A stretch of DNA of 64,000 bases from Curvularia clavata (taxonomy: Eukaryota): positions 4,402,001-4,466,000 of the forward strand of contig CP089276.1 in the NCBI GenBank assembly GCA_023920165.1, written 5' to 3'. Both the position numbers and the translations under genes were made by a program. Each line of letters opens with the position of its first letter. Position 1 is the stretch's first letter. The notes under the pieces are model-generated. The model saw only the letters and a program-made list of their open reading frames with translations, did not search any database and was not told the origin of the DNA. This document shows, one piece after another, positions 22,754 to 44,879 of this stretch.

Positions 22754-23092
22754 GGCGGGCAGCAAGTCGAATAGAAAGACTATCAAAGGGGTATCAAAAC
22801 GAGTTGCTGGTGAAGAGAAGAGCGGGTGCAATGCCAAGTATGCAGAGTGGACATGTGCAGTGACGTGCGGTGAAGATGTCAATGGCCAGGCCTTCGCCGA
22901 GCTGCATCTTGTGCCTTGTTGGGGGGGCAACAATCGATAGTCGCTCTACCCCGGCCTCAAATTATGCCATTCATGCGCCCAAGCTCACCTTGACCATCCA
23001 CCAGCGTCATACGACTGCGCACCACCTTCTCTGCCGCTCGAGTCCATATACCTGAAGCGCACGTACGCATCAGGACCCTCGCCCGCCTGCAC

Positions 23093-24031
23093 ATGTCGAA
23101 GCCGCAATTTGATCGCGCCGACGCGAGCGCGCTCCTCGACGACCGAGGCTACCGCGGCGCCCTCATCCGTGGCCAGAACCCAGCCCTCCTCTTCGAAAAG
23201 GGCGTGCGCGAGCGCATCACCGAGTCGTACTACTGGAAAGAGCAATGCTTTGGTCTGAACGCGGCAACCCTATGCGACCGCGCAGCAGACCTCAAGTTCA
23301 TCGGCGGCACCACAGGTATCACGGGCAAGCCAACCCCGTTCCTGTGCTTGGCGTTCAAGTTGCTCCAGCTTGTTCCAGACAAGGAAATCATACTCGAGTA
23401 TCTCAACTTCCGCGATGACGAAGACGACGACGACGACAAAGACGAGGGCAACAAGGAGCTAGACCTGAATGCAAAGGGAAAACTTGGCTGCTTCAAGTAC
23501 CTACGCTGCCTCGCTGCCTTTTACATCCGCCTTGCCTGGGAGCCCGTCGAAATCTACAAGACATTGGAGCCGCTGCTCACAGACTATCGCAAGATTAAGC
23601 GCCGCCTCAAAGACACCTTCACCCTCACCCACGTCGATCAGTTTATAGACGACCTTCTGACAAAAGACCGCATCTGCGCAACCAGTTTGTGGAAGTTGCC
23701 CTCGAGGGCGATTCTCGAGGACTTGGATATGCTGGACCCCAGAGAGAGTCCATTGGGAGACGAGCTGGACGAGCTGGACGAGGACATGGACAGGAGGAGT
23801 GTTGGCAGCCAAAGAAGCTACAGAAGCCCAAGTTATGAAAGTAGGAGCAGGAGTAGGAGCTACGACAGCCGCAGCCGGAGTCCAAGTCGAAGCCGCAGTA
23901 GGAGCAGAAGCAGAAGCTACCACAGTCGGGATCGAGACCGAAGTCGTAGCCCCGACGAGCGTAGCCGATCAAGGCACAGCACACGGAGCCGCAGTCAAAG
24001 TCGTAATCGTCACAACAGTCATGAACGATAA
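23093..24031 (+). CDS. PRP38: Pre-mRNA splicing factor Prp38 (PRPF38A-like) with RS-rich tail
   Basis: GQNPALLFEKGVRERITESYYWKEQCFGLN, PTPFLCLAFKLLQL, FKYLRCLAAFYIRL, LEPLLTDYRKIK and C-terminal RS repeats. Single exon. Confidence 0.95.
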   Translation: MSKPQFDRADASALLDDRGYRGALIRGQNPALLFEKGVRERITESYYWKEQCFGLNAATLCDRAADLKFIGGTTGITGKPTPFLCLAFKLLQLVPDKEIILEYLNFRDDEDDDDDKDEGNKELDLNAKGKLGCFKYLRCLAAFYIRLAWEPVEIYKTLEPLLTDYRKIKRRLKDTFTLTHVDQFIDDLLTKDRICATSLWKLPSRAILEDLDMLDPRESPLGDELDELDEDMDRRSVGSQRSYRSPSYESRSRSRSYDSRSRSPSRSRSRSRSRSYHSRDRDRSRSPDERSRSRHSTRSRSQSRNRHNSHER

Positions 24032-29309: not shown

Positions 29310-31429
29310 ATGGCGGGCATTGATGTAAGCCTCTGAAAATCATTGCGTGAAACTGACTAATCAAAACATTGGAGAATCGTGAGGCTTTACTCAAGAACGC
29401 GGGGTTCGACATAGTGGAGGCCAGCGTCAAGGACCACCGCGAGGCCCTCAACTCTGGAAACATCACCAGCGTCGATCTGGTAGTCGGTTACCTCAACCGA
29501 ATTGCCCATTACGATACTGTCAAGGGTCTCAATGCCTTTACTGTCTTCAATGACAATGTCCTTGAAGAAGCAGCAGCGTCTGACGCGCGGCGAGCCCAAG
29601 GTCTGCCGCCACGGCCACTAGAGGGCATACCGTACACAATCAAAGACAGCTACAAGGTTGCCGGAATGACTGTGACTGACGGATCGCCTGCTCTCAAAGG
29701 CGTCATGTCGAGCGAGGATTCGGCGATTGCGAAGAAACTGCGAGATGCGGGAGCCGTGCTGATTGGAAAGACGAATATGCCTCCCATGGCTGCAGGTGGT
29801 ATGCAGAGAGGACTGTATGGCCGCGCAGAGTCACCTTACAACTCAAAATACCTCACTGCTGCCTTTTCATCCGGATCTTCGAATGGCGCGGGAACATCTA
29901 TAGCATCAAGTATGGCGGTTTTCGGCATGGGCAGTGAGACGGTAAGCAGTGGTCGCAGTCCGGCTTCCAATAACGCACTCATCTGCTACACGCCATCAAA
30001 AGGACTGCTGAGCTGTCGAGGGCTTTGGCCGTTGTATGTCACATGCGATGTACCGACACCTTATGCTCGGTCTGTTGAGGATATGTTGGAGATACTGAAC
30101 GTCATTGCTACGTCAGACGAAGATACCACGGGAGACTTTGTACGCGAACAAAAGCACGTGCAGATATCCAAGCCTCCTCAAATCGACTATTCAACGCTAT
30201 GTCAGTCCGATGCGCTCAAAGGGAAACGAATTGGCGTCCCTAAGATGTACGTTGGCCAAAAGGATTCGGATCCGCACGCGAAGCCAACCTACGTTTCACC
30301 CGAGGTCGTTGCGTTATGGGAGACTACCGCCAAAACCTTGGGAGGACTCGGAGCAGAAATAGTTTATACTGATTTCCCCCTTGTGACGAATTACGAGAAT
30401 GATTCTGTATCAGGTGAAGCCAACAATGTGCATGGTCAACCGGCAGACTGGAACCACACGGAACGAGGCATTCTCATCGCGCAGGCTTGGGACGCATTCC
30501 TCGTGCAGAACAACGACGCAAAGATCAAGTGTCTAGCCGACATTCAAGACTCTGCAATGCTTTTCCCCAAACCACCAGACTATAAACCCGACACCTTTCT
30601 TGAAGTGCGCAACTGGATCGATTACGCCGGTCTACCCAAGCTCGTCCAGCAAGAAAGCATCCACGCAGTGCAGGGACTAGAACAAGCCTTGAAAGCGCTC
30701 GAGGCCCAGCGAAAGCGCGACCTAGAGGACTGGATGGACACCAACCGGCTTGACGTAGTGGCGTTCCCAGCCCAAGGCGACGTCGGCCTCGCAGATTTGG
30801 AATTTGATCTCGAGAGCACAAAGCACAGTCTACGCAACGGCGTCAAGTACTCCAACGGCAACCGCGCGATTCGCCATCTAGGTGTGCCGACCGTCAGCGT
30901 CCCCATGGGCGTCATGAGCGACAAGAAGATGCCGGTCAATCTTACGTTCGCAGGCCAGGCTTATCAAGATACGAAATTGCTAGCGTATGCGTACGCTTTT
31001 GAACACGCGACTAAGAAGCGTATAGCTCCGCCGCTCACGCCGGGCCGGGATACAGATGTCATTGCTCCTGCAGTGCGGTCTGCGCCATCTGCCAAACCAG
31101 TCATCTCAAACATTGATCTTGTCGCGGATTCAGATCCAGCTTCAGAACAGCTTCGTATCACGCTTCGCGGGACGCTGGCCAAAGCGTCGCCTCAGACGAG
31201 CGTCCAGGTCTTTGTCGATGGCAAAGAGGTAGCGACAAAAGTGACGAATGAAGTAGAGTGGAGCATTGAATATAGCCATGTTCCTGAGAGACCGCAGCTC
31301 CTGGGCTGGGATCTGAAGCCTCTGCCACACAAGGACGTCATGATTCTTGCTGTCGTGACGACAAAAGTTGATGGAGAGCGAGTTGGACAGAGGGAGGCGA
31401 AATTGATGTGGGCGCCGATTGCGAAGTGA
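29310..31429 (+). CDS. Amidase signature family enzyme; probably 2 exons
   Basis: Ser-cisSer-Lys triad context: PLEGIPYTIKDS, GAVLIGKTNMP, SSGSSNGAG, GSETVSSGRSPAS. Likely short first exon ATG GCG GGC ATT GAT (29310-29324), then a GTAAGC intron with CTGAC/CTAAT branch ending at 29374. Confidence 0.88.
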
Positions 31430-32177
31430 AGTTTGAGGGAGGTACGGAGGTTAGGAGGGTTTTCGTCTTTTCGATAGCCAAGCTCGAGCAGCTGGGTCCA
31501 GTGTTGATGTTCGCGTTTTTTAGGTGGTGGATGGGCGGTTCCAAATTAGCAAGTTGACTAGGCAAAACGACATGTAGTATTTCGCGTAGTAGTTATACGA
31601 ATACATCAAGATTTTCTTTTCTTGGTTCTTCGGTTTACCCTACGTGCAGTTAGTGCATGTACTGTCAAACATGGAAGATATTATATCGCGCCGCACGTAA
31701 CGTACACGTTACGATAGATATTCTCTGCTGTGGAAAGGCCGCGGAACGTCGATTTTGTTATTCTTGCCAAGTACAGATGCTTCTTCTGATGTCATTGGCA
31801 CTGATAGGTAGGTACGCGTACTCGAACCTGTATGTTTGGGTCACAGCCTTACGTCACCTGTTTCCCAGCTAGTCAGTATCCGGTTTGTATGGCGTCGCTC
31901 CGAAGATAGCAGATTTGTGGTACGATCCAGATCGCGGACCAGAGACGATAGTACTAGGGTCCAAGGAAAGCTGAAAGGAGAACCAAAAGCAAGTGAAGAG
32001 GAAAAAAATTCAATTCTCGTTCCACTACCTTCTAAGACAGAGGTAATGGATTAAAGTAGCCTGCGCCAGATATACCCAAATCATTGCAACTCCTTTCCCC
32101 GCTCCCCACGCATATGACTGATGGACTTGTTCGCTCTCAATCGTGCCGATGTCGTTTCAGAAGTCTGATTGCGGTGT

Positions 32178-32294
32178 TTACATGACGGTGCACCAGCAGG
32201 ACTCATCGCAGCCACAGCATTCGCAGGACTCGCCGCACTTGGGAGCAGTGGGCTTGACGATGGTGGAGATGGAAGAGGCGACGCTGGCAGGCAT
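32178..32294 (-). CDS. 38-aa Cys-rich peptide with C-terminal CaaX box (MPASVASSISTIVKPTAPKCGESCECCGCDESCWCTVM)
   Basis: Read manually; it is below the 60-aa ORF cutoff. TTCAAAATG Kozak context, TAA stop and C-ending codon bias. 5'UTR intron 32370-32317 (GTAAGC..CTAAC..CAG), (CT)n tract, and TATAAA at 32497-32492. Confidence 0.82.
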   Translation of the reverse strand: MPASVASSISTIVKPTAPKCGESCECCGCDESCWCTVM

Positions 32295-32374
32295 TTTGAA
32301 GAGTGGTTGTGAGGTGCTGCAAGTATGGTGTTAGGTGAGTTGAGGTAGGACCGGCAGGGGGGCTGCTTACTGGT

Positions 32375-32390
32375 AGAGAGAGAGAGAGAG
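32375..32390. repeat. (AG)n microsatellite; CT tract in the 5' leader of the CaaX peptide gene
   Basis: agagagagagagagag immediately upstream of the 5'UTR intron donor on the minus strand. Confidence 0.7.
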
Positions 32391-33902
32391 TAGGTTAGAG
32401 GAGAATGGTAGGGTATGGAGAGGTGTTTGGCCGGATAGTGAGGCGATGTAGAGTGTGGAATGGAAGGATAATTCAGCGGCAGCGTTTGGGCTTTATATGG
32501 TTGCCAACGCCGATCAGCAGGTTACTTCCAACTTGACTTGTGAAGCAGCATACAACGGTCAGAGCCATGTTGCAGCCCCTCATTTGCGACCCAACCCGGC
32601 CTTGACCCTGAGGAATGCATGACCTGTTTCGACAGCTGCCAGATGTCAGCCATGTCATTGGCCGCGCGTGCTGGCTGCACCGCCTCTGGGTCCCTGTCAT
32701 GTCTCCAGCCTGGACAGTTTGCGCGTATAGACGGGTCTGGAGATGAAAAGGGTAACGGCTGTGGTGGCTCAGCTGGCTTGAGGCGATAATTGAGCGTCGC
32801 CATTGGCTCTTCGTCGGCGAGACTCGTATCACCACTGTCATCGAGCATGCAGGCCCCTGTGAGTGGCATGGACTAGTTGCGCAACTAAGCAGCGCCAAGC
32901 TTCGAGGCGCTGCTTAATCCCTCAGCGAAAACAGGCCATAAGCTTTGCCAAGCGCCAGCCAAAGTCTTGATTTGTGCTGTGGATCAGCCTGTGGAGCACG
33001 CCAGATAGCATGGCTGTGCCACAGTGGGCTTATGACGCCTCATTTCGCGCTGCAGTAGCTTCGTCATTGTGTGTGGCATGCATACTTTGGGCGAGCAAAA
33101 GGCGCAACGCGGCGGTGTGTGTGTGTCTGAGTGGGTAAGTGGACGCGGCGCTTCTCTGGTCGGGTGGTAGCGTAGCAAGTAAGCAGAGGGACTACGTAGC
33201 CTCAGAGTCGACATTGTGGCTTCGCTGGACAGTGACCCTTTGCGGGCCGAACCAAGTGGCGGGACGTGGACGCGGCATTATCGTTGATTTTTGTGACACA
33301 GGGCTGTCAGCCCAAACGCCGCAAGGTTGTTGTTCCTTCATCTCGTCTCTGGTGTAAAGTAGGTAGATTGTACCAGTCCTCCAGACATGCTCGGGCGCCG
33401 GATCCAGCGGAAGCCGCTTAGTCACACCGGAAATGACTCCGGATTCTCCGGCACACGCGCCACAATTAACATCAGCCTCCCTTCTCATACTCCGTGTTAC
33501 AGCATCAAAGCAATTTACTTTGTCGCACGCGCTGGTCTCGTCGCTAGGCCTTGCCTCGACAAAACACCAGGAACACCTGCTGCTTGCCTCGGTTTCGTTT
33601 CTCCTATCCGAGGCATCCGGACGACACTCCTGCCGCAGCCGCGTGCAAGACGCCCAAGACGCTCATTTCAATGAACCGTCGCAGAACAGACACGGCCACA
33701 ATGGCTAGCATCCGCCTTCTGGTGGAACGCATTACGCTTTCCTTGGCGGCCTAGGCAAGCGGATGAACGGCAAACAAGCATACATCACTAACAAGCTCAA
33801 AATCGTGAAAACTGACAACAGGCATGAATAAAGACATCTGCTAAAAGCAACCCGAAAGATGCTACACTCCACCCAGCTGCACAAGCCCACCTCGTCAGCC
33901 AC

Positions 33903-34637
33903 CTAGCTTACGGTAATGGAACTGGATCCACTCGGCAGCAAAGTCCCATTGGCAAATCCCTCGGTGCACAGAATCATGTAGTCGTGGGTACCAAGCCGCA
34001 TTCCCGCCTTGGCCCACGCATCAAAATGCTTCTGTGTCGTAATGGTGCCTCCAACTCGCTTCTCCGTCCTCACAGACCAGAATTGCGTAAAGGTGCGCGT
34101 GCCTTCAATCGACGGCTTGTTGACGCGCTGGCTGGTGTAGAGGTTGTACGTGCCTTCTTCCGAAGTGAAGTTTCCTTTGGCCGTCCACGGCTCACCTGGC
34201 GCGAGGACGTCGTAGGATTCGACAACATAGAACTCAATCAATGGATTGCGGGTCCACCCATAGAGAGCGAGATAGCCGGGTCCTTTGGCTTGGTAGGTTC
34301 CAGAGTATCGTACTACCCTGCTTCTCGTCAACAATGGTTTTTTCACAGTCGTAGAGGGGCCAACATACCGTGAGCCTCCTGGCTTGAAACCTGTACCTGC
34401 TACAAAACCTCCGCCTGGCTGGCCTGACCAGTTGCACGAGTATCTACCGCCGCCTTGATTGTTGCATTGGAAGTTGCCAGCGCCTTCAGACCAGAACGAA
34501 TAAGTCCCACCCTGGCGCGTCTCGAGCTGCTTGCCTACAGTCTCATGGCTAATGAGCGACTCAATACCGCTTGGTGCAGTGAGCACGCCGGGAATGAGTG
34601 TTAGCGCGGCGGTTGCGAGGGTGATGAAAGATACCAT
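33903..34637 (-). CDS. Secreted endo-1,4-beta-xylanase, glycoside hydrolase family 11; 2 exons
   Basis: Signal peptide, YLALYGWTRNPLIEFYVVE (nucleophile Glu), RVNKPSIEGTRTFTQFWSVR, HFDAWAKAGM and YMILCTEG (acid/base Glu). 51-nt intron 34368-34318. Confidence 0.93.
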   Translation of the reverse strand: MVSFITLATAALTLIPGVLTAPSGIESLISHETVGKQLETRQGGTYSFWSEGAGNFQCNNQGGGRYSCNWSGQPGGGFVAGTGFKPGGSRYVGPSTTVKKPLLTRSRVVRYSGTYQAKGPGYLALYGWTRNPLIEFYVVESYDVLAPGEPWTAKGNFTSEEGTYNLYTSQRVNKPSIEGTRTFTQFWSVRTEKRVGGTITTQKHFDAWAKAGMRLGTHDYMILCTEGFANGTLLPSGSSSITVS

Positions 34638-36123
34638 GATGAAGATGATGATGCTGCTACGGTTGAAAGCAGACTTGAGACCATGTACCTCAGGCTCCTA
34701 TTTATGTAAAAAGAGCCCTTGGGCAACACAATATGACAGCACCAGGACAGCTCCCGGATATGCGGAGTCCATCCATGGGATCAACTTCTGTTGTCCATCA
34801 CCAAACCTAAATTCCCACCGCCAGAGATGTCAGCATTGAGCGTGTTCCAAGGCTATACAGGCTATTCTGAGCGGGGGAGATGATGGTGATGTAGCAAGCC
34901 AAGCTCTTGTCGTGGCCATACAAGCGCCCGCCAAGTCCGGGGTGCATTGCCAATAACATATCTGGAACACGAGCAGCAAACTCAATCTTTCCATGTGCGA
35001 CACAAAAGCAATATGTCTTGTTTTTCGCTAATCTGCCGTAATGTCGCTTTTCTGCCGGTGGGTTAGCTCTCAGGAATACCCATATTAATATCTGATGACT
35101 ACCGCGCGTCCCGTCCCAAGTGCCGGCCGGGTACATAGACAATGGCAAACTGATCGGCGCCAGCATGATGTGGGGTAGGGGGATTGGACGTGGTATTGAA
35201 CCGATGCCATTTTCCGTGGGCAAGTCTATCGAGGACAATCATGTAAAGATGACCTCTTGAATTGCAGACATCAGAGTTTGACTTTTGCAAATACCCGGTT
35301 TGTTCAGAACTAACAGGCTCTCCTAGAGTTGGTGAAACCGGAACGTGGCGGCTTACAGAATCATCTTACATTTTCCTAAGATCATCAATTTGGAAAGTAA
35401 CCGTAGTTGTCAGGGTTTCATGATTTTCGGCGCTGATGGCTTGTCACGATAGGTGAGCTCGCTTTGGTTTTTCGTATTCACTGGGTCTTGGAGAGAGTAG
35501 CTCTTTGCATCAGTATTTGATTCCGAGTAAGACAATTGGAATGCTCCTATAAACATGTTAAAAATATCCAACTATAGCAAGGGACACTGGCTCGCAGACT
35601 ACTCACTACACTCTAAATAAGTACTACGCTCACGCTGAGCGGGGCAACAGCGCCTTCTGCGGAATCTACAATAGACTGCTAGACTTATGAGCGGCTACCA
35701 TGTATTCCAACCACTACAATTGCTCGTGCAAGAGTGTCATTCATTTGGCCAAACGCACACGCAGGTGCAGTTGACTATTTTGATCTCACGTTCAGATGTA
35801 GAGTACGACTTGGATGGAGGAAGTCAATAGCATCAGGATCGATACTGATAGCGTCATAGCAATGTACTACACGAAAGAAATAGACTTTAACTTCACCGAC
35901 CCGTTGACTGCACAAGCTCGACATGGGGGCGAGCAGGAGGCCTACCAAGACTACTGTCCTGGCGGTAGAGGTTTAAAGTAAAGGGACTGCATATGATTTG
36001 AATCGATTGGGTGTTGTACAGCTGAAGAACATACTGAGTAGTCCATGTCCACCACCACTGCCTTGATCCAACATTGCCCAGACAGCCTCACTCCAGACCC
36101 CCTATATCCTTTGCCATTTCTCA

Positions 36124-38503: not shown

Positions 38504-40677
38504 ATGGCTGGCCGATTCGTGCGCGCTTCCAAGTACCGTGAGTATTGATGCCCAGCGCCGCCTCAGCTCCATGCACTCCTAACACATGCGCCCCAGGCCA
38601 TGTCTTTGGCAAAGGCACAAAGAAGGTACACAAACACCACCATCGCCTCCCCTCCTTGCATGCGCTGACCTTCCCAGGAACAATGCTACGATAACCTGCG
38701 CATCACAAAGAATGCCTGGGACACCAACCTGATCAAGGTCAGCCCCAGCCCATCCGCACGCGACCATGGCTCGACTCCCTCTCACACCCCCTAGGCCAAC
38801 CCCGAGTACATCTCAGTCAACTGGGAGGCCAGCGGTGGCGGCGCCTTTGCCGTCATCCCCATCAACGAGCGCGGCCGCGCCCCCGACCAGCTGCCTCTCT
38901 TCCGTGGCCACACGGCTGCCGTCCTCGACACCGACTGGTACGCCCACACGCGAACCGCCACGCTCCATACTGACGGCCCATAGGTCTCCTTTCAACGACT
39001 CGCTCATCTCTTCGGCTTCGGACGATGGCAAGGTCTTTATCTGGAAGGTTCCCGAGGGCTTCTCCCTCCACACTGACGCTGAAGAGCCCGCCGACGTGGC
39101 TCCCGTAGCCAGGCTGAGCGGCCACATGAGGTGCGACTGAGAGCGCTATCATTCACAGCCATTCCCTAACCCTCGTGCAGGAAAGTCGGCCATGTCCTCT
39201 TCAACACCGCCGCCGAGAACGTACTTGCTAGCGCATCCGGCGACTACACGGTAAAGATCTGGGATGTCGAGGCAGGCGCGCCCCAGCTCAGCCTCAAGCA
39301 CAACGACATTGTTCAGTCGCTGTCTTGGAGCGCCGACGGATCGCTGCTCGTTACCACTAGCCGAGACAAGAAGCTGCGCGTGTGGGATGTACGCCAGGAA
39401 CGGCCCGCCCAGGAGGTGCCTGGCCACCCTGGTGCCAAGAACAGCCGTGCTGTATGGATGGGCGAGACAGACCGCATTGCAACTACTGGTTTCTCCAAGA
39501 TGAGCGACCGTCAACTTGGTCTATGGGACCCCCGCAACCCTAACGAGCCCATTGGCGGCTTCCAGATCCTCGACTCCATCTCCGGTGTCTGCATGCCTTT
39601 CTGGGACGACGGCACACAGTGCTTGTATCTTGCCGGCAAGGGGTATGTACATCTTCATCGTCCTCGAAACTCCCGGCTAACCATGACAGTGACGGCAACA
39701 TCCGATACTACGAATACGAAAACGACAAGTTCGAGTATCTCTCAGAGTACAAGTCTGGCGACCCCCAGCGTGGTATTGCCTTCCTCCCCAAGCGCGGCAT
39801 CAACCTGCACGAGAATGAGGTTCTTCGCTGCTTCAAGACCGTCAACGATTCCTATGTCGAGCCTGTATCCTTCATCGTACCCCGCCGATCGGAAATGTTC
39901 CAGAGTGACATCTACCCACCCACCAATGGTCTCAAGCCTGGTGTCTCGGCCAAGGAATGGTTCAGCGGCAAGACGGCAATGCCACCCAAGATTTCGCTCG
40001 AGAGTGTCTATGAAGGAGATGCGCCCAAGGAAGTGCAGAGCGACTACAAGCCCTCTAGGCCGGTAACTGCCGAGACTATGCCTGTCAAGGCGGAACCACC
40101 CAAGCCAGCTCCTGAGCCTACACAGGCGCCGCTAGCCTCCCGCGGTCCACCACCATCTATGAAGGACAACAAGGATTCCATGGCTTCTGCCGCATCCAAA
40201 TATCTCGACAAGGATACTCCTTCTGACAATGAGAGCGCATCCAGCTTTGAGGAAATTTCCAAGCCTGCCGATCGCCGTAACTTGACCAGTGCCCGTCAAG
40301 AAGAGAAGACCAGGGGTCCTGTCATGACCAAGGAGCCCGAGCCTGCAAAGCCATCTACCACCCACACTGCTACGCCCTCTCAGTCCAGGCCAGCCACATC
40401 AGCTGAGCCCTCTCCCGCATCTGCAGCTGCATCTTCTTCTGCCCCAGCAGCCAGCTCCGGCGGCCCTGCCTCTGCTCTTCGCGACGCACTGGGCGACATC
40501 AAATCTCAGCTTGAGCACCAGAACAAGGTCATGTCGGACCAATCCGACCAGATTGCCATTCTGCTGCGCGAAGTTTCGCAGCTCAAGGCAAAGGTTGGAG
40601 CTTCTGAACCTTCTGACCGCGAAAAGGACGAGCGCATCCGCCAGCTGGAACTCGAGCTCGAGGAGGCTAGGTCTTGA
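38504..40677 (+). CDS. CRN1: Coronin (WD40 actin-binding protein with C-terminal coiled coil); about 7 exons
   Basis: MAGRFVRASKY/RHVFG, SVNWEASGGGAFAV, GHTAAVLDTDW, TTGFSKMSDRQLGLWD, GKGDGNIRYYEY, VSFIVPRRSEMFQSDIYPPT and a terminal coiled coil. Several short GT-AG introns at the 5' end. Confidence 0.96.
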
Positions 40678-41792: not shown

Positions 41793-44700
41793 CTAAGCCT
41801 TTGTCTGCTTCTTGGCGGTACCAATATGCGTATTATGCACCTTGGTCGCAAACTTGAGACTGGTAATTGTCTCCTGCAGATGCGCCTGGAGCGGACTAAC
41901 CATGACGAACATGAGGGTTTTGGAGTTGCCGCCGAGCGAGTATTGGAGCAGGTAGGTAAGCTGTGGAGACGTGGATGTTAGCAACAAAGTTTCTCCATAT
42001 GAGGATAACCAACACATACCTTTGAATTTCTGTATGGAATGTGACCGCCTTCTTTGGCTGAGCCAAGAGCATTGATGACGTCGCCCAGACAACTCAAGCT
42101 CTTGTTGATATTTTGTGTTTCTTTCAAGCGTGCGCCTTCGACCTTGGAATGCTCTAGACGCTCGGATCCCGCAAGGTCGACTAGGTTGAGTGTTCCTTCG
42201 CTTCTCTCGCCCGTAATGGCATTGTGGCCAACGAGTCTCAGAATAAAGACCGAGTGACTTCGACTAGATCGCATGTTGGCTTTTGTAGCAGCCACGGTCC
42301 TGTTCTTGCTGGCAGTTTCCAGGATCTCCTCGACACGGCCAGGGCCATCCAACTTGACGCTGACGGCGTTGTCCAGGTTGGTCTGCTTTTTCACAGGGTC
42401 ATGCCGGACTTCAACCTTTTTCTTATCCAGGTCTTCGGACCGGCCAAGCAGATCGTTGTATTGCTCGTTGTAGACCTCGATGAAAGAGCCCTCCATAGTA
42501 TACTGCCAGCCTTTTTCTTGCAACCGTTGCGCCTCATCCCAGATCTGGGCTGTGGCACGTGGAATCATACCATCGGCTGATGACATGGTGTGCGTCTTTC
42601 CAGATCCCGTCTGACCGTAACAAAAGATGCAGACGTTGTAGCCATCAAGAGCGCTCTGCACAAGCTGGCTGATCTCCTCAAAAACTTCTCCGTTCTGGGA
42701 CGCCGGGCCAAACACACGATCAAAAGAGTACGAGTATGCGGCAGTGATGTCCTTGCCAGTCGCACTCTGCTTGCTTGGGCCAAGAATGGCAACTTCCTTG
42801 CTGTCGGTGTCGGTGTCGGGAAAGGATATCTGTGCAGGGTGACTTTCGGTAGCATGAGCGGGTCGCACACGACACATGACGCGAATGTTGCCCTTGAGCT
42901 CTTGGACTTGGTTGAACAGCTTCCGGCGCAGTGTCTCTTCTTGACGGAGTTTGTCGTGTGCTCTTTCTGCTGCTTCAATGGCATCTTGCATTCTCTTGTG
43001 GAGATCGTTGAAGGCTGTTGACTGTGCCTGGCTGTCAGACTCGAGAAAGTCAATCTTCTCCTTCATGGCCTTGTTCGTTGCCTCAAGGGTGAGATTGAGT
43101 GTTGTCGCCTCTGTGAGTTGGTTCTGAAGGCCATTCTTAAGAATTCTTTCGCGATCGAGTTCCGACTTGACGTTGGTGAGCTCGCCTTGAAGCAGCTGTG
43201 CCTCGCGCTGCTTGACGTCTGCATCTAGAGCAGCCGCTCGGAGTTTGGAAGCATACTCTTCTTCAATCTTTTGTGCCTCTTGTGCGCGCCTGCTGCGCTC
43301 CGCTTCAGAGTCCGAGTCGAGCTTCTTTCGCAGTATTTGGAGTTCCTCCTCGTGTTGCTTCAATAGTTTGTCGATTCGTGCTTCAAACTCGCTGCGAGTC
43401 TTTCTCTCCAGCTCGTCCCGCTCTCTTTCTAACCGATCCGTGTCTTTTCGATGCCGCGATTCCAAATCCTCGACCTCGTTGCGTAGCCTCCGCCGTACGT
43501 CGTCGACTTCGTAAGTGTGCTTCTGCTGGGCCATGTCGAGTTCCATCTTTACCGATTTCAGGCTACTACGGGTATCATCAAGTTCCGACTCGAGTCCTTT
43601 GTTCACAATCTCTAGTCGTGCGCGAATGGTTTCGAGTTCAGTAACACGGCCCTGGAGCTGCTGAATTGTCTCCTTGTAGTCAGTGGCCTGTTGCACATCC
43701 ATCTCCATCTTCTCCTTGAAAGAACGGAAATCGCGTTCCATAGCCTCGATCCGCTCATTGTAGAAATCTGGACAACGATCGTTAGTAAAGCGGTTCAAAA
43801 ATGGTGGTGGTGCTGACCGCCTCGGCGTGGTTGACATGGGCCGCCATGGCGACATGTTCATTTGCGGCTGCCGCACAGGTGTCTGCGTCGGCTGCCGAAG
43901 CTTTGAGGGAGGCAGCTTTGGTTTAAGAAATGGGTTGATCCCGTTGTCAGAAGTCATTCCACGTCCGAGCCGACCTTGAGGCTCTTCTGCCTTGGATGCG
44001 CCCAGGGTGAGCGCTCCAATCTGTTTGCAGATGGAGTTGCAGTCGGGATCGGTGGGGTCTTCAATGACAGGAGTGACCGAATGAAAGGAACAAGGAGAAG
44101 AGACTGTCCGAGGCTTGGGCACTTGGGCAACCCGTCCACGGGAAACATCCTGTGAAACGGTGCGTGGCGGTGGGATGGAAGGTATGTCACTAGACATTGT
44201 GAAGGGGGTTGAAGATATAAGAAATGTATGCCCACCTTTGCGGTCCGCTTGATCACTGTCGTCGTCACCTGCCCGGTGCATCATTGACGTGGCAGGGCGC
44301 GATCCCTGGTGGTAGGACTTGCTTCTGGCATGTGTAGTCTGGCCATAGGCAGATTTCGGTCTTGCGATTGCGGCGGGCCTGGGAGTAGCGCCCACGCTAC
44401 TGCCGTACGCAGATACGGATGTGTTCTTTACCGCTGGTTTCGACAAGGCGCGGGATGTGGATGCAGCCAGGCTGCGGGGGGCGGGAGGCTTGAGGCCATT
44501 GGAGATCTTGGAGGGTGCGGGTATTCTTCTCGATGGTGGTTCGGCCACAGGTTCAGTCTGCGTCCTCCGCTGCTTGTAGGCCGGCTCGGGTACTGTGGTG
44601 GTCAGCGAAGTGTGCAACCAGAGAGGTGTGGCGAGGGGTAGATACAGCCAGAGGGTTTGTGTTTGGCCGTGGGTATAGCCATTGCGCTGCGCATGTTGGT

Positions 44701-44879
44701 GGTGGATTCGTGCAGTTCGCCCAGGGCGCGGGTCGGCGATGATGGGATGTGTGAGAAGGTCGACGGTGGTTTGATTCCGGAGGGTTTGGTGATGCCCTAA
44801 CACGCCCTGAGATTAGACAATGGACGGGCCAGGGGATGGCCTTGGGGATACCCACAGCGTTCTCGTTTGCCGCCTCCAT
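41793..44879 (-). CDS. KAR3: Kinesin-14 C-terminal motor (Kar3/KlpA)
   Basis: Coiled coil, neck ELKGNIRVMCRVRP, P-loop YGQTGSGKTHTM, SSRSHSVF, LVDLAGSER, and HIPYRNSK/LTYLLQYSLGGNSKTLMFV. Start MEAANENA at 44879. Introns 44855-44797, about 44645-44594 and about 42018-41961, plus an optional 468-nt intron at 44235-43768. Confidence 0.95.

Follow-up and report, generated by a model that had tools for sequence, protein, structure and literature searches.

A spliced micro-gene of Curvularia clavata encodes a Cys-rich CaaX peptide of a family found beside classical a-factor genes

The DNA analysed here (the window) was a stretch of 64,000 nt from Curvularia clavata (assembly GCA_023920165.1, contig CP089276.1, forward-strand positions 4,402,001 to 4,466,000), and all coordinates below are those of the window. 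The gene under study lies on the minus strand: its coding sequence (CDS) consists of 38 codons and a TAA stop (32294..32178), is translated as MPASVASSISTIVKPTAPKCGESCECCGCDESCWCTVM* and ends in CTVM. The start codon at 32294 stands in the context TTCAAAATG. Upstream, a TATAAA box (32497..32492) is followed by an 86-nt exon 1 (32456..32371), which is wholly 5' untranslated region (UTR), pyrimidine-rich and free of ATG, and which carries a (CT)8 tract at its end (32390..32375). A 54-nt 5'UTR intron (GTAAGC...CCTAAC...CAG, 32370..32317) separates it from exon 2 (32316..31997), in which the CDS is preceded by 22 nt of 5'UTR and followed by about 181 nt of 3'UTR. Codon usage is biased: the third position is C in 24 of the 38 codons, and the GC content at third positions (GC3) is 0.82, against 0.52 for the window. 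The open reading frame (ORF), start context, TATAAA box, CT tract, intron signals and codon bias had been named in a model's reading of the sequence (the original prediction), and all were found where it had placed them.

Public sequencing data were used for transcript evidence: 22 runs from 14 studies match the stretch, the RNA nature of each being a guess, and four runs (X1, X5, X8 and X9), each from a different study, were compared with the window. The intron 32370..32317 was removed at exactly the predicted boundaries in contigs of all four runs, which bears out the claim of a real, expressed and spliced micro-gene. The X8 contig (406 nt, 100 % identical to the window) joins 32456..32371 to 32316..31997, exon 2 showing no differences, and the X9 contig (335 nt) has the identical exon joint. 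In the 4-kb contigs of X1 and X5, donor and acceptor are those of X8, and the CT tract of that strain or species is 2 nt shorter; these contigs extend into both flanks and over neighbouring genes, and are not to be read as a single transcript. The skipped interval has the ends CT..AC on the plus strand, hence GT..AG on the opposite one, which places the transcript on the strand of the ORF. An overlapping plus-strand ORF (61 aa, 32149..32334) was dismissed because the splice orientation is that of the minus strand. Since no ATG precedes 32294 in the X8 contig, the peptide ORF begins at the first AUG of the covered transcript. Assembled contigs report splicing and the extent of cover; true 5' and 3' ends and expression level are beyond their reach, and the start of the X8 contig at 32456, 36-41 nt downstream of the TATAAA box, is no proof of a transcription start. 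Two short, diverged X9 contigs match 32177..32300 alone (approximately the CDS) and then depart from the window; the two differences listed in them are both synonymous (C27, E25). In the X1/X5 strain a single replacement, T16I, falls within a variable linker.

The gene is present as one copy in the window. Among 469 ATG-ORFs of at least 30 aa (six frames), two have a CaaX-like ending, and the peptide ORF alone is Cys-rich. By Pfam, its neighbours are a PRP38 splicing factor (22994-24031, plus strand), an amidase convergent with the peptide gene (29357-31429, plus), a GH11 xylanase upstream of it (33903-34697, minus), a WD40_4 coronin-type protein (39544-40677, plus) and a C-terminal-motor kinesin (41978-44812, minus). 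A tRNA scan and the base composition of the window gave nothing relevant to the peptide gene.

Three segments were distinguished in the peptide. Residues 2-15 (32291..32250), PASVASSISTIVKP, form a Ser/Thr-rich N-motif conserved in the alignments A2, A4 and A5 described below and in profile-profile comparison with hhalign. Residues 20-35 (32237..32190), CGESCECCGCDESCWC, form an acidic Cys-rich core with 7 Cys, and residues 35-38 (32192..32181) are the CaaX box CTVM. The Cys spacing is C-x3-C-x-C-C-x-C-x3-C-x-C, all 7 Cys falling within the last 19 residues. CTVM would make the peptide a prenylation substrate under the CaaX rule as generally known: a terminal Met (X = M) marks a farnesyltransferase-type substrate, X = M, S, Q or A being farnesylated and X = L geranylgeranylated. 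Such a canonical box directly beside a dense Cys cluster, as the original prediction had pointed out, makes prenylation combined with palmitoylation or metal binding a reasonable expectation. Heterodisulfide-reductase-type iron-sulfur domains, with their CCG motif, offered a possible likeness that was set aside, as the spacing does not fit.

Relatives were sought with phmmer (38-aa query, 1.84 billion representative proteins, E<=1e-3). There were 15 matches, four of them at E<=1e-10, and 14 of the 15 were retrieved (P0009, a protein of 1903 aa without an aligned stretch, was left out). All 14 contain the motif set of the peptide, with the subfamily consensus MPASVASSISSIVKP..CGESCDCCGCDESCWCVVM. 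The named sources were Alternaria (five species), Stemphylium, Pyrenophora (three species), Clathrospora, Ascochyta, Plenodomus, Phyllosticta (two species) and Macrophomina, all of them Dothideomycetes (Pleosporales and Botryosphaeriales; class confirmed by look-up for two); the nearest named relative, from Alternaria, is 89 % identical. An alignment of 14 natural-length subfamily sequences, the window included (A2), has 14 of 14 sequences identical at M1, K14, P15, C20, G21, E22, C24, C26, C27, G28, E31, C33, C35 and V37, and 13 of them end in C[TIV]VM. The ORF, its Cys spacing and the terminal CaaX box, which the original prediction had wanted sought in other genomes, are accordingly conserved among Dothideomycete relatives, where the tail reads CGE[SE]C[DE]CCGC[DE]ESCWC[TIV]VM in Pleosporales and Botryosphaeriales. 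The best Atlas cluster for the window peptide (score 0.80) is a 56-aa ascomycete 'hypothetical protein', and is taken as a lead only.

That annotation misses the gene was confirmed in these relatives, whose models often begin with a false 5' extension or run on into a dehydrogenase encoded downstream. In P0018 (Alternaria tenuissima), the extension is 44 % identical to the minus-strand translation of window positions 32609-32773 over 55 translated residues; because it matches the region upstream of the window gene, the promoter DNA is conserved with Alternaria. In the window, the gene lacks the neighbouring short-chain dehydrogenase that lies 3' of it in models from Alternaria, Stemphylium and Clathrospora. 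Several relatives (P0003, P0004, P0030, P0074 and P0123) bear misleading names: 'Gluconate 5-dehydrogenase', 'NAD(P)-binding protein', 'Metallothionein' and 'MUS-26 involved in DNA repair'. The dehydrogenase-type names stem from neighbour-gene fusion or name transfer.

One earlier publication bears on these peptides. Wilson et al. (2023, PLoS One; PMC10569646), cited here from parts of the article and its supplementary files, applied a filter for small CaaX proteins and arrived at a Leotiomycete 'putative a-factor pheromone': the type of Botrytis cinerea BCIN_13g03330, 45-64 aa long, recorded in at least 111 species and mostly ending in CTVM. The peptides in its file S10 contain the motif ...GPGSAASSTISSIVKP..., an acidic Cys-rich core and the ending ...CCCIPIPCTVM (PMC10569646). 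According to those parts of the article, the B. cinerea gene is expressed in a MAT1-1 isolate with a peak in sclerotia (198 reads per kilobase per million, RPKM), and none of B. cinerea, M. fructicola and A. resinae shows MAT1-2-exclusive expression, the M. fructicola gene being undetectable (PMC10569646). The parts of the article cited, which include the first part of its Discussion, make no mention of Sordariomycete homologues of the candidate. Elsewhere in the literature searched, no mention was found of the tail motifs, of six locus tags of the family, or of FGSG_05361 and related tags.

The Leotiomycete peptides resemble the window peptide in being tiny, in the motif P-G/A-S-A-A/V-S-S-(T)-I-S-S/T-I-V-K-P, in the acidic Cys core, in the C[TV]VM end and in a gene that is often unannotated (PMC10569646). 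They differ in length (45-64 aa against 38 aa), in a head 'MC..LVNRNG' that the window peptide lacks, and in the core: C-x2-C-x4-CCC-IP(IP)-C in Leotiomycetes, CGESCECCGCDESCW with 7 Cys in the window. The signature CCCIP(IP)C is absent from all 14 sequences of A2, where CCGC.ESC[WYG]C takes its place, and the window peptide was therefore filed as a tail variant of the family; its class, Dothideomycetes, lies outside the coverage of the paper.

Metagenome contigs were scanned for the tail motif, which yielded 35 loci, 31 with a complete ORF, and 20 distinct peptides; at the remaining loci (L012, L016, L018 and L022) an intron or stop breaks the ORF, or the ORF is cut short. Nineteen of the 20 peptides were aligned as A3, L019 being left out for its upstream in-frame extension. 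When A2 was compared with A3 by hhalign (91.4 %, E 9e-7), PASVASS-ISTIVKP was aligned with PGSAASSTISSIVKG. The N-motif of the Leotiomycete/Sordariomycete family, P-G-S-A-A-x-S-x-x-x-S-I-V-K-P, is thus recognisable in the window subfamily, over 15-16 hhalign columns, and the window peptide likewise has an acidic Cys cluster directly before C-[TVI]-[VI]-[ML]. In both tail types the motif is followed by a short linker, then by the Cys cluster and C[TV]VM. At two of the interrupted loci the coding region itself holds introns: in L012 immediately before the CCC codons, and in L016 inside the N-motif, with an in-frame TAA before the CCC codons (possibly a pseudogene or a further intron). The window gene differs from both, its sole intron lying in the 5'UTR.

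Forms that combine parts of the two types were also found. A 41-aa metagenome peptide and P0144 of Myriangium duriaei join an MPPS/T-rich head to the CCCIPIPC tail, and P0010 joins such a head to the window-type tail. P0144 groups with L001, L006, L007, L009, L014, L017 and L027 in a third form (41-55 aa) that has the MPPS/T-rich head without IVKP and the core CWCGDDC.CCCIPIPC[TV]VM, bridging the Dothideomycete head and the Leotiomycete/Sordariomycete tail. Taken together, the sequences suggest a family of 35-64-aa peptides across Pezizomycotina, in which Met is followed by P-[GA]-S-x-A-[ST]-S-x-[SE]-[ST]-I-[IV]-K-P, a linker that is short and variable, 5-7 Cys in an acidic cluster, and a CaaX box. 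The suggestion of the original prediction that the peptide may represent an undescribed family did not hold: it is linked to the Leotiomycete family (PMC10569646) by its N-motif, size, Cys-rich core and C[TV]VM end, and members already stand in public databases as hypothetical proteins. Peptides of this kind, small and Cys-rich with a CaaX end, were thus already known, from one publication as a putative a-factor of Leotiomycetes and otherwise as hypothetical proteins.

A joint profile of both tail types (A4, 26 sequences) was then used to search 5.8 billion proteins (lengths 19-111 aa, E<=10): 138 matches were found among 1060 candidates, and the best 120 of the 138 were examined. An organism name was attached to 73 of these 120: about 51 Sordariomycetes, 17 Leotiomycetes and 5 Dothideomycetes, with classes assigned by genus and looked up for five species. 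The Sordariomycete genera include Fusarium, Colletotrichum, Xylariales (Nemania, Hypoxylon, Xylaria, Apiospora), Gaeumannomyces, Rhypophila, Diplogelasinospora, Ophiostoma, Sporothrix, Diaporthe, Cytospora, Purpureocillium, Ophiocordyceps, Claviceps, Ustilaginoidea and Lomentospora; no Eurotiomycete was recognised among the names in the best 120 of 138 matches. An hhalign comparison of A2 with a Sordariomycete-only alignment gave 92.7 % and E 4.4e-7.

One 90 % cluster contains P0145, which is FGSG_05361 of Fusarium graminearum PH-1, together with F. oxysporum proteins, and is described as common to 21 Fusarium taxa. By BLASTP, the window peptide matches FGSG_05361 over residues 2-38, up to its last residue, with 40 % identity (E 0.023, single comparison). 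A separate, classical 21-aa a-factor is given for Gibberella zeae (= F. graminearum) in file S2 of the Leotiomycete study, and an F. oxysporum a-factor is named in the legend of its Table 1, within the parts cited (PMC10569646). F. graminearum therefore has both a member of the family and a classical a-factor gene, so that orthology between the two is unlikely. At the level of sequence, the comparison showed the peptide family to be a gene separate from, and coexisting with, the classical a-factor gene.

Selection was assessed on the CCCIPIPC type, with 19 distinct coding sequences. The ratio of nonsynonymous to synonymous polymorphism (pN/pS) was 0.44 in the head, 0.35 in the N-motif, 0.36 in the linker and 0.20 in the core, the last value covering the part of the core before the pattern-forced segment, and synonymous sites being near saturation. 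On these values, the whole peptide is under constraint, beyond the C-terminal 'mature' part. The shortness of the ORF would agree with a chance reading frame in a non-coding or antisense transcript from which no peptide is made, and this explanation is highly improbable: the frame starts at the first AUG of the covered transcript in good context, its GC3 is high, conservation is confined to the CDS with synonymous differences, and pN/pS is well below 1 in the relatives. The frame, Cys positions and CaaX box are moreover kept across three classes, in the 15 peptide matches and the 138 joint-profile matches at E<=10. It is very probable that the gene is real and a member of the family.

The C-terminal segment varies in two informative ways. 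In most members, the window peptide among them, the CaaX box ends in M; Fusarium (CTIL), Claviceps (CVVL) and Ustilaginoidea (CVIL) have L at this X position. By the CaaX rule given above, this M/L switch would change the predicted lipid from farnesyl to geranylgeranyl, and it fits a membrane anchor more readily than a receptor ligand. The tail was also found behind a ubiquitin-like domain: four metagenome proteins (P0027, P0028, P0029 and P0034), encoded on contigs of about 1 kb from JGI (Joint Genome Institute) metagenomes, carry such a domain followed by the window-type tail CGESC.CCG.GESC[WY]CTIL. The first profile search (5.8 billion sequences) retrieved P0027 at E 5e-3, and also P0028 and P0029; P0034 followed later. 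The fused tails are 19 residues long, Cys-rich with a CaaX end, and nearly identical to the tail of the window peptide. The domain matches PF00240 above cutoff and aligns end to end with ubiquitin, its GG falling on G75-G76, and the tail starts where the extension proteins eL40 and eS31 start in ubiquitin fusions. A search with P0029 gave one further relative only, and the Atlas only generic ubiquitin-like clusters, all below 0.9.

The occurrence of the tail behind this domain points to the Cys-rich CaaX tail as a discrete module. It could either be retained as an anchor, as in MUB/UBL3 proteins as generally known, or be released after GG. Dually lipidated tails of the MUB/UBL3 kind resemble the family in having Cys just upstream of the CaaX box and in being attached to a ubiquitin-like domain. 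The fusions differ from MUB in matching PF00240 and not the MUB family PF13881 at E<=1, and in having GG at the ubiquitin processing position; a UBL3-like cluster in the Atlas listing for the fusion is a weak lead. Compared with Ras- and Rho-type tails, the Cys cluster of the window peptide is far denser, and its 'cargo' is a Ser/Thr-rich segment of 19 residues only. A tentative extension, possible and on balance doubtful, is that the Cys-rich CaaX segment (16-19 residues) would be a mobile, free-standing unit, placed behind a Ser/Thr-rich leader or a GG-ending ubiquitin-like carrier and released as a prenylated, metal-binding or acylated micro-lipopeptide of a new class. Such a unit would be distinct from pheromones and metallothioneins; the published Leotiomycete 'a-factor' would then be misassigned, and the true a-factor of Leotiomycetes and Dothideomycetes would be yet to be found.

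The original prediction had considered an atypical lipopeptide pheromone. In that case the peptide would be an a-factor-like precursor of this Dothideomycete: once the CaaX box had been processed, its N-terminal part would be removed, and a Ste6-type transporter would carry the farnesylated C-terminal peptide out of the cell, to be recognised by the partner through its Ste3-type receptor. A tiny precursor that starts with MP, has a Ser/Thr-rich head and ends in CTVM is indeed like the classical precursors in file S2, and the homologous Leotiomycete peptide was proposed as an a-factor on like grounds in the parts of the article cited (PMC10569646). Classical Sordariomycete a-factors (Neurospora MFA-1, Sordaria PPG2, Fusarium PPG2) share with the window peptide the MP start, the Ser/Thr/Ala-rich head, the tiny size and a CVVM or CTVM end, and presumably the same CaaX processing enzymes. 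Unlike the window family, they lack the IVKP motif and a Cys cluster; those in file S2, set apart here by that listing alone, are 21-24 aa long and have a single Cys preceded by a GY-like motif (PMC10569646). The window peptide has no GY motif before the CaaX Cys, reading ...DESCW-CTVM, and the mature peptide would hold six extra Cys. The tail is nearly identical in two classes, which is unusual for a partner-recognition signal, and conservation in the leader equals that in the presumed mature part. Mating type does not regulate the Leotiomycete members, again in the parts of the article cited (PMC10569646), and classical a-factor genes coexist with the family in F. graminearum and F. oxysporum, the family being present in many other Sordariomycetes. 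A promoter scan of 17 de-duplicated upstream regions for Ste12 pheromone response elements (PRE), HMG, metal response elements (MRE), copper response elements (CuRE), Ace1-like sites, stress response elements (STRE), Yap1, zinc response elements (ZRE) and CreA, with consensuses taken from general knowledge, found no motif clearly above mononucleotide shuffles and no PRE in the window; the lack of Ste12-type or HMG-type enrichment counts weakly against a pheromone. Together with the M/L alternation and the ubiquitin-like fusions, this makes a pheromone precursor distinctly unlikely: of the earlier proposal, the lipid-tail features stood and the pheromone role was weakened.

The 7 Cys would also allow a prenylated micro-metallothionein, in which they form a Cu(I)/Zn thiolate cluster held at the membrane by the farnesyl group, for metal buffering or sensing. 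The Cys of the last 19 residues, arranged in CxC and CC motifs, are invariant in all 14 subfamily members, and an Apiospora member is auto-named 'Metallothionein' in one database source (a lead only). Small fungal copper metallothioneins are highly expressed. Those of the Neurospora CuMT type, as generally known, are similarly very small with about 7 Cys in CxC/CC motifs; the window peptide differs in its CaaX end, Trp/Tyr, acidic spacers and Cys-free conserved N-terminal half. The window peptide, P0035, P0097 and P0144 matched no Pfam family at E<=1, metallothioneins included, and a sequence-profile search of the PDB found nothing better than E 0.7. AlphaFold2, run on alignment A5, gave no confident fold (mean predicted local distance difference test score, pLDDT, 49.3; predicted template modelling score, pTM, 0.12), which would be expected of an apo-metallothionein without ligands and equally of a disordered lipid anchor. 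By their usual definition, metallothioneins do not typically have a conserved aromatic residue (here W/Y34) or several acidic residues, the Cys spacing differs between the two tail types, and the promoter scan, with its motifs from general knowledge, gave no enrichment of copper- or metal-responsive motifs upstream, a weak point. A metallothionein is, overall, unlikely.

The reading preferred here, which we consider probable by a narrow measure, is a non-pheromone, prenylated and lipid-anchored membrane micropeptide that would probably be multiply S-acylated or metal-binding. Its maturation might proceed as follows: a farnesyl group would be added at Cys35, the terminal TVM clipped, and the new C-terminus methylated by the general CaaX pathway. 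The six neighbouring Cys would then be S-acylated; a metal-thiolate cluster formed by them is the less likely alternative. The product would be tightly anchored at the cytosolic face of membranes, with the conserved N-motif as its exposed, interacting part. Lipidation, topology and a non-pheromone role are, in this scheme, proposals.

Several points weigh against this reading of a lipid-anchored, non-pheromone peptide and against the breadth of the family. The link between the window subfamily and the CCCIPIPC type is carried by the 15-16 aligned columns and the shared layout: the Cys-rich cores of the two were left unaligned by hhalign with the A3 and Sordariomycete profiles, and the CCCIPIPC type was retrieved neither by the window peptide alone (phmmer, E<=1e-3) nor by the first profile search (E<=1). 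Prenylation, S-acylation and localisation are predictions from the peptide sequence, and metal binding would fit the conserved acidic residues and the CxC/CC spacing no less well than acylation would. The peptide also has the attributes by which a-factors are nominated: it is tiny (38 aa, under the limit of <100 aa with a CaaX/CpaX end), starts with MP, has a Ser/Thr-rich head and ends in CTVM. Coexistence in Sordariomycetes may be compatible with a pheromone role in other classes. In the literature searched, no a-factor described for Dothideomycetes was found, which leaves the pheromone slot open there and speaks for the pheromone. The ppg2 gene of F. graminearum reportedly showed no detectable expression or phenotype in one study. 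Aspergillus fumigatus is said, in papers that cite Krappmann et al. 2025 (Curr Biol), to have an a-factor-like pheromone (PpgB).

New in this analysis are the span of the family over Dothideomycetes, Leotiomycetes and Sordariomycetes, beside classical a-factor genes, and the occurrence of its tail behind a ubiquitin-like domain. The gene is systematically missed or mis-modelled, though seemingly conserved and well transcribed in lineages of plant pathogens (Alternaria, Pyrenophora, Fusarium, Botrytis, Colletotrichum). With its 38 residues, prenyl box, six adjacent Cys and an N-motif shared across classes, the product would represent an unexplored type of lipidated micropeptide. The published Leotiomycete a-factor candidate, taken here as the only one published outside the Sordariomycetes, belongs to the same family, and both the coexistence in Sordariomycetes and the spread in Dothideomycetes argue that it is probably something else; the sole published functional label of the family is, in that case, probably wrong. 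If so, the question of the a-factor would reopen in Leotiomycetes and Dothideomycetes.

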